From a virus (taxonomy: Duplodnaviria > Caudoviricetes): DNA of 64,000 nucleotides. Below are positions 52,888 through 53,722 of the stretch, one piece after another. The notes under the pieces were generated by a model, which was not told the origin of the DNA, ran no database searches, and was given only the letters and a program-made list of their open reading frames with translations. The DNA lies in IMG/VR virus record IMGVR_UViG_3300030376_006242, one strand, 5' to 3'. The first letter of the stretch is position 1; each line of letters opens with the position of its first letter. The position numbers and the translations under genes were made by a program.

Positions 52888-52904
52888 TCAGTAAGTATGT
52901 CCAT

Positions 52905-53336
52905 ATGCCATGGACTTATCAAGGTAAAACAATAGACTCACTACCAGAAGACTGCGAAGGATTTGTGTATCTCATCACAAACACAACCAACGGTAAACGG
53001 TATGTGGGCAAAAAATTAGCAAAATTCAAGAAGACACGTCCGCCTCTCAAGGGCAGGATAAACAAACGTAGAAGCAAGGTTGAATCGGACTGGAAGGACT
53101 ATTGGGGTTCTTCAGATCATTTACTTGCTGACGTGGCACAATTAGGCGAAGACAAATTTACTAGGGAAATATTATACATCTGTAACACTAGAGGCGTAAT
53201 GAGTTATCTCGAGGCTCGAGAACAGTTCGAAAGGCGAGTATTAGAATCCGATGATTACTACAATGGCATTATCAATGTGAGAGTTGGTGGTTCCAAAATC
53301 CTTAAAGAAGAACTTAAAAATTACAACAAGGCTTAA
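52905..53336 (+). CDS. Minimal GIY-YIG endonuclease
   Basis: GFVYLIT...KRYVGKK, 'YWGSS', 'FTREIL', helix 'YLEAREQ', terminal 'YYN'; TAAGTA at 52892-52897 upstream. Confidence 0.85.
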   Translation: MPWTYQGKTIDSLPEDCEGFVYLITNTTNGKRYVGKKLAKFKKTRPPLKGRINKRRSKVESDWKDYWGSSDHLLADVAQLGEDKFTREILYICNTRGVMSYLEAREQFERRVLESDDYYNGIINVRVGGSKILKEELKNYNKA

Positions 53337-53722
53337 CATAGCAACCAAATTGATCGTAGATCCAGGAAGTGCGTTTGAAACACAATGGTGAATCCTGAGT
53401 TGCAAGTCGAGTGCTAACTAAAGGCACAAAAGAAGATGCTCTGTGAAAAAGATACAACATCACAACTGCTCACTTTGTTTGTGAAGGGTGGGTCAGTTGC
53501 CCGTGACTAATGAAGTCTGGAATAGGGAGTTGGCGGGTCACCGCTTCCGTACAAAAGTTCCTTTCACAAAATGGCAGGCTAGTCTCGCATGATGGCTTCA
53601 TACTTTTCCCGTTACTGGGTGAAGTATGGATCAACTGTCTGCATGATGCGACACATAACTTCGTTATGTAATTGCTTTAATGCTTGAGCGTAAGCGAAAA
53701 GCAGAACGACGCTAGTCGTTCT
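53337..53722 (+). ncRNA. Candidate ~385-nt structured non-coding RNA (family unrecognised; strand inferred)
   Basis: Largest intergenic gap in the window, no ORF, more than 10 complementary stems and a possible pseudoknot (see findings). Confidence 0.6.
53703..53722. terminator. Perfect 8-bp hairpin at convergence of transcription units
   Basis: AGAACGAC-GCTA-GTCGTTCT adjoining the stop codon of the convergent gene; no clear U-tract. Confidence 0.4.

Follow-up and report, generated by a model that had tools for sequence, protein, structure and literature searches.

The window analysed here, a 64,000-nucleotide (64-kb) stretch of the virus record IMGVR_UViG_3300030376_006242, derives from an uncultured marine T4-like myophage. 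It contains a stand-alone SegE-type GIY-YIG nuclease gene encoding 143 amino acids (aa) (52905..53336, +; phrog_447), followed by a non-coding gap of 385 nucleotides (nt) between the stop codon of this gene and a convergent gene (53337-53721). We report that the gap is occupied by a new class of large, double-pseudoknotted phage RNA (53337..53724, +), which has no Rfam family, and that the pair of nuclease and RNA is shared by well over 100 fragments of related phages. As a tentative interpretation, which we prefer while regarding it as far from secure, the element is a phage RNA of a new kind that acts in trans, and a mobile, Seg-like nuclease has settled next to its gene.

Comparative evidence for a large structured RNA

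The first-pass annotation of this DNA, which was made from the sequence alone, had placed the beginning of a base-paired non-coding region five bases past the stop codon of the nuclease gene, and the first helix supported by our analysis, P1, indeed begins at 53341. That annotation also proposed to judge the region by its homologues, and across relatives it proved to be both conserved and covarying. Loci were collected around relatives of the nuclease (80), around relatives of the convergent gene (50), and by the RNA motif alone (80). The element aligns directly 3′ of the nuclease gene in relatives, down to 67-75% DNA identity, and iterated nhmmer searches detect it in 75 of 83 unique downstream sequences. 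The structure of the full element was drawn by hand and assessed on an alignment of 24 sequences with the window as its first row, in which 94.4% of the cells in proposed pairs are standard base pairs, compared to 43-47% when the partners are slid. Changes on both sides were found in 29 of the 54 pairs, and the cells carrying them number 158 versus 5-28 in the slid controls, a count that none of 500 shuffles equalled. The 3′ core was compared in 34 more diverse sequences, where 79.8% of cells are paired versus 36-41% with slid partners and 27 of 42 pairs change on both sides; some of the mispairing in this core alignment is misalignment, because it is an unrefined MAFFT alignment.

The decisive support for an RNA structure is thus comparative, folding alone being somewhat better than chance: the single-sequence fold of the gap has a minimum free energy of -117.1 kcal/mol (z -2.77, a value equalled by none of 100 shuffles), and the opposite strand folds at z -2.48. 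An unbiased covariation scan of 85 full-length RNAs (721-column MAFFT alignment) was too gappy to use, and RNAalifold recovered few helices from unrefined MAFFT alignments. The RNA is assigned to the + strand, which is that of the nuclease, because G-U cells far exceed A-C cells (126:13 in alignment A3 and 81:37 in alignment A2), and because of the GNNA loop and the tandem G-A of the P-delta hairpin described below. No conserved open reading frame (ORF) was found in the gap across 82 unique downstream sequences. A coding reading was considered by way of a 32-aa ORF (53589-53687, +), in which the AUGAUG of the first of two conserved boxes runs in frame through the AUGAUG of the second, and was ruled out by an early stop in more distant relatives.

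The RNA measures ~390 nt in the window and roughly 400-520 nt in relatives, and consists of a 5′/central pseudoknotted domain and a 3′ core, with two pseudoknots and more than ten helices (all on the + strand). Its 5′ end is a conserved AUAGCAAC segment that is paired within P1 (53341-53345 with 53399-53403; 100% paired, with one compensatory G-C to A-U change). P1 encloses H1 (53352-53355/53359-53362) and H2 (53363-53367/53393-53397), both judged in the near group only, and is followed by H3 (53411-53415/53423-53427) and by H4 (53435-53438/53458-53461), the loop of which contains the conserved GCUCUGNGAAAAAG segment. The double-pseudoknot core (53471..53570) comprises H5 (53471-53476/53485-53490; both-side changes in 5 of 6 pairs), the pseudoknot PK-A (53478-53484 with 53564-53570; both-side changes in 6 of 7 pairs), the pseudoknot PK-B (53503-53507 with 53537-53541; 4 of 5 pairs changed, 100% paired, eight sequence variants), H8 (53519-53522/53558-53561; changes in all four pairs), H7 (53525-53529/53544-53548) and H7i (53534-53535/53542-53543).

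The 3′ core (53554..53725), which is matched by our covariance model R1 at 99 bits, is the most widely conserved part of the RNA, and the 5′ domain varies between clades. Within this core, a single-stranded box 1 (GCAUGA, 53587..53592) is followed by the long hairpin P-beta (53599-53610 with 53617-53628), by box 2 (53641..53646), which is again GCAUGA, and by the P-gamma hairpin with its conserved C-UUC-G loop closure (53653..53669). An A-rich linker of variable length then leads to P-delta (53682..53702), a hairpin made of a stem, a tandem G-A/A-G, two G-C pairs and a GNNA loop (UGAGCGNNAGCGAA motif), which is not repeated elsewhere in the window. The RNA ends in the terminal hairpin P-epsilon (53703..53722), where all eight pairs show both-side changes and 95.5% of cells are paired; read on the - strand, P-epsilon is also the only terminator-like site found, placed after the convergent gene. 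What varies in the RNA are whole structured domains or the A-rich linker. An inner GUGA/UCAC helix around box 1 was dropped from the structure, being 50.7% paired with zero both-side changes.

Among the unique 3′ cores, all 118 of 118 have the same six bases at the heart of box 1 as at the heart of box 2; this number counts sequences, and the independent changes behind it are fewer. Six variants occur, namely ACAUGA, GCAUGA, GCAUAA, ACAUAA, AGAUAA and AGAUGA. The two boxes show no consistent pairing with each other, since CAUA, GAUA and GAUG, three of the variants, lack self-complementarity, and the reverse complement of the box is present inside the RNA in just 5 of the 118. Two boxes that are read by one outside partner are expected to change in parallel, and not in a compensatory manner, so that their identity points to a partner acting in trans. 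Furthermore, the box sequence stays unchanged whether the neighbouring gene is a GIY-YIG nuclease, a PD-(D/E)XK nuclease or no nuclease at all. Exposed boxes that always match also offer a direct handle for finding the partner of the RNA.

With respect to known families, Rfam gave no match at gathering score in the whole window, and a search of 53200-53850 with E allowed up to 10 yielded just two chance-level rows of small nucleolar RNAs. A blastn search with the element against 50,697 phage records returned no match at E up to 10, and the record G001 has the same sequence as the window and adds no independent support. In five related loci, RF01718 (Polynucleobacter-1) matches at 46-106 bits ahead of the same 3′ core (L138:2773-2907(-), L157:2803-2948(-), L061:3096-3242(+), L049:3492-3636(+) and L335:2590-2739(+)), and because this core follows it in all five, Polynucleobacter-1 is the front part of a longer RNA. 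For the 5′ domain of the window itself, no match to RF01718 was obtained with E allowed up to 10. The motif was listed in 2010 as a candidate cis-regulatory motif from Burkholderiales and fresh water (PMC2864571). One of the five loci, L335, lies on a contig of a bacterial metagenome-assembled genome (MAG), and among 151 sampled genomes of the class of this MAG, RF01718 occurs in one, which is the MAG itself; 79 of 80 fetched bacterial pattern hits were chance matches. No description of this RNA was found in our searches of the literature. It might be among the more than ten thousand unnamed candidates of PMC10690425, a source whose main text, in the passages searched, makes no mention of GIY-YIG and one of whose supplementary tables lists candidates upstream of GIY-YIG genes.

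The GIY-YIG nuclease and its linkage to the RNA

The 143-aa protein matches PF19835 (SegE_GIY-YIG) at E 6.5e-36 and 123.7 bits (cut-off 25) over residues 3-123, which covers positions 1-123 of the 123 in the profile, and phrog_447 at E 2.9e-40 over positions 8-145 of 148. The latter family is composed of short stand-alone proteins, often mislabelled ‘NAD synthetase’. PF19835 is the sole Pfam domain, no second domain was found in Pfam or PHROGs, and just 20 residues lie beyond the Pfam match, which bears out the first-pass description of a GIY-YIG protein without an extra DNA-recognition domain. The “very basic loop” of the same description was right in its charge and not in its shape: the basic stretch KKLAKFKKTRPPLKGRINKRRSK (residues 36-58) is modelled by AlphaFold as a confident beta-hairpin (block predicted local distance difference test (pLDDT) 88-92; 84.8 for the model of the protein) instead of a floppy loop. 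Because the stretch is also conserved among relatives, we regard it as a feature of the family. The closest meaningful fold match of the model is the catalytic domain of I-TevI (1LN0_B), with a probability of 0.92 and a template-modelling score of 0.62 on the target, at a Foldseek E of only 0.3; the superposition has a root-mean-square deviation of 3.6 Å over 102 columns at 22% identity, and no PDB match was found by sequence at E up to 1.

In 29 diverse sequences, 39 columns are invariant, so that the conserved motif residues of the GIY-YIG core are kept; among them are F20, V21 and Y22, Y33 and G35, E103, E106, and Y119 and N120, and the ORF is free of stops in 189 of 190 copies; the nuclease is thus under selection. 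It forms an ORF of its own between genes, outside any intron or intein. Matches by tblastn were obtained in 772 phage records, 372 of which cover at least 80% of the query, and, judged by this protein, Methylophilales phage Melnitz is the closest phage in culture (73% amino-acid identity).

The linkage of nuclease and RNA was assessed from both sides. Among the 80 nuclease-relative loci, R1 matches the core in 70, in each case 3′ of the GIY-YIG gene and on its strand, and eight of the ten misses have at most 340 nt after the gene, so that the core is present in 70 of the 72 loci with enough sequence. L080 and L083, which represent one sequence type, have sufficient sequence downstream, yet lack the RNA core. 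Starting from the RNA motif alone, 79 of 80 loci hold the RNA (78 by nhmmer and L209 by R1); ten of the 79 have no upstream room, and a GIY-YIG gene is found beside the RNA in 66 of the other 69. The synteny that the first-pass annotation had proposed to examine is therefore very strong. In most relatives the RNA starts 0-10 nt past the nuclease stop. The pair is found in three contexts, in the majority after gp46-p79, in three loci after a radical-SAM gene (L160, L191 and L209), and also among structural-looking genes; in the two loci of the last kind (L134 and L162) the RNA lies 5′ of the nuclease, so that both gene orders exist.

The linkage has exceptions on both sides. Independence of the RNA from the nuclease, which the first-pass annotation had named as an outcome that would speak against its own proposal, is seen in a minority of four loci. 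In L163 and L187, a PF24608 (PDDEXK_15) gene replaces the GIY-YIG gene between p79 and the RNA (E 1e-25 to 1e-27; L163:1517-2071(-) and L187:1688-2203(+)), labelled in PHROGs as a RusA-like resolvase (phrog_244). In L144 the RNA comes after a GDSL-like gene with no adjacent nuclease, and in the bacterial contig L335, which carries integrase-like and Doc/AbrB-like ORFs, it likewise has neither GIY-YIG nor any other nuclease adjoining it. PF19835 is absent from the whole records of these four loci, with the positive control found in three of three, one copy each; all phage records searched are fragments. Three RNA-bearing records that were searched whole hold exactly one GIY copy each, adjoining the RNA. 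L335 also carries two extra P-delta/P-epsilon copies beside the full RNA (2900-3400), one of them on the opposite strand, which suggests that this module can multiply on its own. Conversely, the R1 core is absent (E up to 0.1) from all seven cultured genomes encoding the short protein family, namely Melnitz (whose best R1 score is 11.6 bits), S-SRM01, S-SCSM1, phiM12, ACP17, MED4-213 and ACG-2014f, in all of which the short GIY-YIG gene is packed among protein genes.

Pairwise identities over 89 unique loci indicate how the parts of the locus have travelled. The Spearman correlation of the nuclease with the gp46 C-terminus is 0.28, that of the nuclease with the RNA is 0.38 (5′ domain) or 0.40 (core), and that of gp46 with the RNA is 0.38-0.45. 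Nuclease and RNA are thus co-inherited no more tightly than other neighbours. The loci L140 and L189 are 92-100% identical through gp46 up to the nuclease start; their identity falls to 63-77% in the nuclease ORF, remains low and uneven over the RNA 5′ domain (32-92% for windows of 60 nt) and recovers to 93-98% in the core, and GIY alleles 76% identical adjoin gp46 genes that are 97% and RNA cores that are 97% identical. This pattern indicates that nuclease alleles, sometimes with the adjoining RNA domain, have been exchanged between lineages, with the conserved core as one border.

The genes on either side complete the picture of the locus. A gp47-like gene (49895-50914) and a gp46/Rad50-like gene (50901-52685) come first, and the end of the latter is overlapped by p79 (52648..52887, +), a basic helical ORF of 79 aa with no family match in Pfam or PHROGs, which is kept directly 5′ of the nuclease slot in nearly all main-synteny loci, the PD-(D/E)XK ones included. 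In Melnitz, S-SCSM1, MED4-213 and ACG-2014f, too, the short GIY-YIG gene comes after a small ORF, of 44-52 aa. The convergent gene (53722..54291, -; 189 aa) has a weak likeness to HemD/HEM4, its match to PF02602 (HemD/uroporphyrinogen-III synthase; E 4.9e-4) being below the cut-off; it is restricted to nearer relatives, and other genes take its place in the remainder. The G+C content is 0.39-0.47 over p79, nuclease, RNA and convergent gene (52600-54300) versus 0.27-0.35 in the flanking genes, as would be expected of a segment with a separate history. Neither a tRNA nor a transfer-messenger RNA was detected in the window by ARAGORN.

As for expression, no sigma-70-like site was found on the + strand within 52400-54400. 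The TAAGTA ahead of the nuclease gene (52892..52897, +), which had been taken for a late-type promoter, does not hold up as a recurrent motif: 16 copies are distributed over both strands, and this one alone lies within 40 nt 5′ of an ATG-started ORF of at least 80 aa. The T4 late-promoter consensus has no match on either strand of the 64 kb versus 6.6 expected from shuffles, and the phage must use another late-promoter word. Among the 23 listed runs holding part of the stretch, 16 are on record as RNA, and contigs in four runs bridge the junction of gene and RNA (for example X1, 52681-53589, and X2, 53241-53900), with a 7.7-kb X11 contig spanning the whole stretch; being assembled contigs, they do not show ends, strand or level, may include DNA carry-over, and are uninformative where a stretch is uncovered. 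Co-transcription of nuclease and RNA, one half of the first-pass proposal, is plausible because the RNA lies on the nuclease strand and starts 0-10 nt past the stop. The other half, a ribonucleoprotein whose RNA supplies the specificity, fares less well, as discussed below.

Possible roles of the RNA and its nuclease

In the scenario that we tentatively favour, the RNA would be made from the + strand, most likely as the 3′ end of a gp47-gp46-p79-nuclease transcript closed by the terminal hairpin, and would act in trans, the twin single-stranded boxes on their conserved scaffold serving as putative recognition sites for one partner, either protein or RNA. The GIY-YIG protein would be a free-standing Seg-type nuclease occupying a ‘nuclease slot’ beside the RNA gene, much as T4 SegB has its place among tRNA genes, and would cut the DNA of a rival or sister genome in or near the conserved RNA gene. 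Recombinational repair would then carry the nuclease along with the adjoining RNA segment, and might also amplify both. Such a spread by cut and repair would explain the swapping of nuclease alleles, and even of nuclease families, at the slot.

Several observations weigh against this scenario. A homing gene should be patchy in distribution, and a nuclease-free slot was found in just 1 of 69 phage loci with room (L144); such rare absence, together with 189 intact ORFs out of 190, is what one would sooner expect of a useful gene that has become fixed than of a selfish gene. Characterised Seg enzymes carry a DNA-binding domain, and the 143-aa protein, unlike them, has no recognisable one. The rarity of nuclease-free alleles and the missing domain together keep a functional tie between RNA and nuclease alive. 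No cleavage site and no nuclease-less target allele in the same synteny was found, nor any tandem amplification, each phage locus having one R1 match. The box motif is not repeated in the 64-kb window, with 4 matches at up to two mismatches versus 7.5 expected.

An unlikely but sensible alternative is that the RNA is a cis-acting element of the 3′ untranslated region (UTR), attached to or cut from the nuclease mRNA and controlling how strongly the nuclease is expressed or how stable or toxic it is, for instance as an antitoxin-like brake or as a timing device. This would account for an RNA that in most relatives begins within 10 nt of the stop on the same strand, with no + strand promoter-like site between gene and RNA, and for the strong linkage seen in both searches (70 of 72 and 66 of 69 loci), and the RNA-library contigs X1 and X2 do bridge the junction. 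However, a UTR stabiliser would need far less than ~390-520 nt, two pseudoknots and over ten helices; the RNA also follows another nuclease family, or a GDSL-like gene where no nuclease is present, and in L134 and L162 it precedes the GIY gene. GIY alleles of 76% identity next to RNA cores of 97% also count against control in cis, and the library contigs show neither transcripts nor their ends, one of them entering the convergent gene.

A further alternative, which we regard as improbable, is the ribonucleoprotein of the first-pass annotation, in which the RNA gives the domain-less GIY-YIG enzyme its target specificity or switches it on; the twin boxes would then seat a protein dimer, or the RNA would base-pair with the target through one of its segments. 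Stated at its boldest, and with an equally slim chance, RNA and protein are one machine and the first RNA-dependent GIY-YIG nuclease, in which the scaffold seats the protein and directs or licenses cutting; nuclease-free and PD-(D/E)XK loci would be its decayed or re-tooled versions. If true, RNA-directed cutting by such a pair would add a new enzyme family to the RNA-directed nucleases. In its favour are a protein that lacks a DNA-binding domain and has a conserved basic beta-hairpin, a linkage kept in three genomic contexts and both orders, two identical boxes changing in parallel, and a single GIY copy, placed beside the RNA, in each of the three records searched whole. However, the guide-like end that the first-pass annotation had proposed to look for is not there: no hypervariable guide-like segment exists at either end of the RNA, the 5′ end being conserved and paired in P1 and the 3′ end being a covarying hairpin. 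The boxes, moreover, keep the same sequence with GIY, with PDDEXK and without a nuclease, four records have the RNA without PF19835, and the core is missing from all seven of the cultured phages that encode phrog_447-type proteins. Since there is no guide-like end, the nuclease is exchangeable, each partner is found alone and co-inheritance is weak (Spearman 0.38-0.40), an RNA-guided enzyme is not favoured, and the idea that the RNA supplies the specificity of the nuclease is unsupported. In a milder form, the RNA may be a new member of the ornate phage RNAs, with its twin boxes serving to titrate a host or defence factor.

That the RNA is catalytic or selfish, a degenerate intron-like or other ribozyme forming one mobile unit with its endonuclease as a group I intron does with I-TevI, seems very improbable: its pseudoknotted, highly conserved core with invariant single-stranded segments, its association with homing-type nucleases of two families and the joint exchange of GIY and RNA 5′ domain in one pair (L140/L189) would fit, but Rfam 15 has no group I, group II or small-ribozyme match (E up to 10 for the element and 0.5 for seven relatives), no gene is interrupted, p79 ending before the nuclease and the next gene being convergent, and the nuclease ORF lies outside the RNA, not inside it.

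Comparison with known systems

The catalytic domain of I-TevI (PDB 1LN0, 1MK0) is the best meaningful fold match of the predicted structure, at a weak E-value. I-TevI itself is intron-encoded and has a linker and DNA-binding domains, whereas the 143-aa protein has none of these and possesses an extra basic beta-hairpin.

HEARO reportedly turned out to be the guide RNA of IscB. The IscB/HEARO and TnpB/omega RNA systems, which are RNA-guided nucleases of mobile elements (see PMC13565253), resemble the present locus in that a compact nuclease gene stands beside a large structured RNA in a mobile context. Here, however, the nuclease is GIY-YIG and not RuvC/HNH, the RNA has neither a variable guide end nor a HEARO or other Rfam match, and each of the two, RNA and nuclease family, also occurs in the absence of the other.

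The orphan RNA Polynucleobacter-1 is a 141-nt motif that, in the five related loci, occupies the position of the window's 5′ domain and is then followed by the same 3′ core; its original description notes neither a 3′ core nor a link to a nuclease (PMC2864571). GOLLD and ROOL (see bioRxiv 10.1101/2024.12.08.627333) are likewise large, intricate, phage-borne RNAs found by comparative analysis. The window RNA differs from them in having no Rfam match, in its smaller size and other architecture, and in its linkage to nuclease genes. Large intricate bacterial or phage RNAs of unassigned job are rare, and past ones have led to new biology; the present one is abundant in marine and freshwater T4-like phage fragments.

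The closest parallel for the locus as a whole is SegB of T4 and T6, since there too a GIY-YIG gene of Seg type is set among the genes of structured RNAs in a T4-like myovirus. According to PMC2330249, SegB recognises DNA encoding a conserved tRNA motif and drives the inheritance of the tRNA region, and according to PMC13096335, its homologues show enrichment in the vicinity of tRNA genes across 296 phage genomes, amplify the tRNA region and have been repeatedly co-opted by myoviruses. The window-type nuclease resembles SegB in that it also borders a segment of genetic exchange. It differs in that its neighbour is one large pseudoknotted RNA instead of tRNAs, in that the protein, being of the short phrog_447 form, has no DNA-binding region at its C-terminus, and in that nuclease-free alleles are rare and cleavage, homing and amplification are conjecture. 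A tight but non-obligatory pairing of an RNA with swappable nucleases extends the picture of SegB and tRNA, and suggests that homing-type nucleases of phages may generally guard or spread useful RNA genes.

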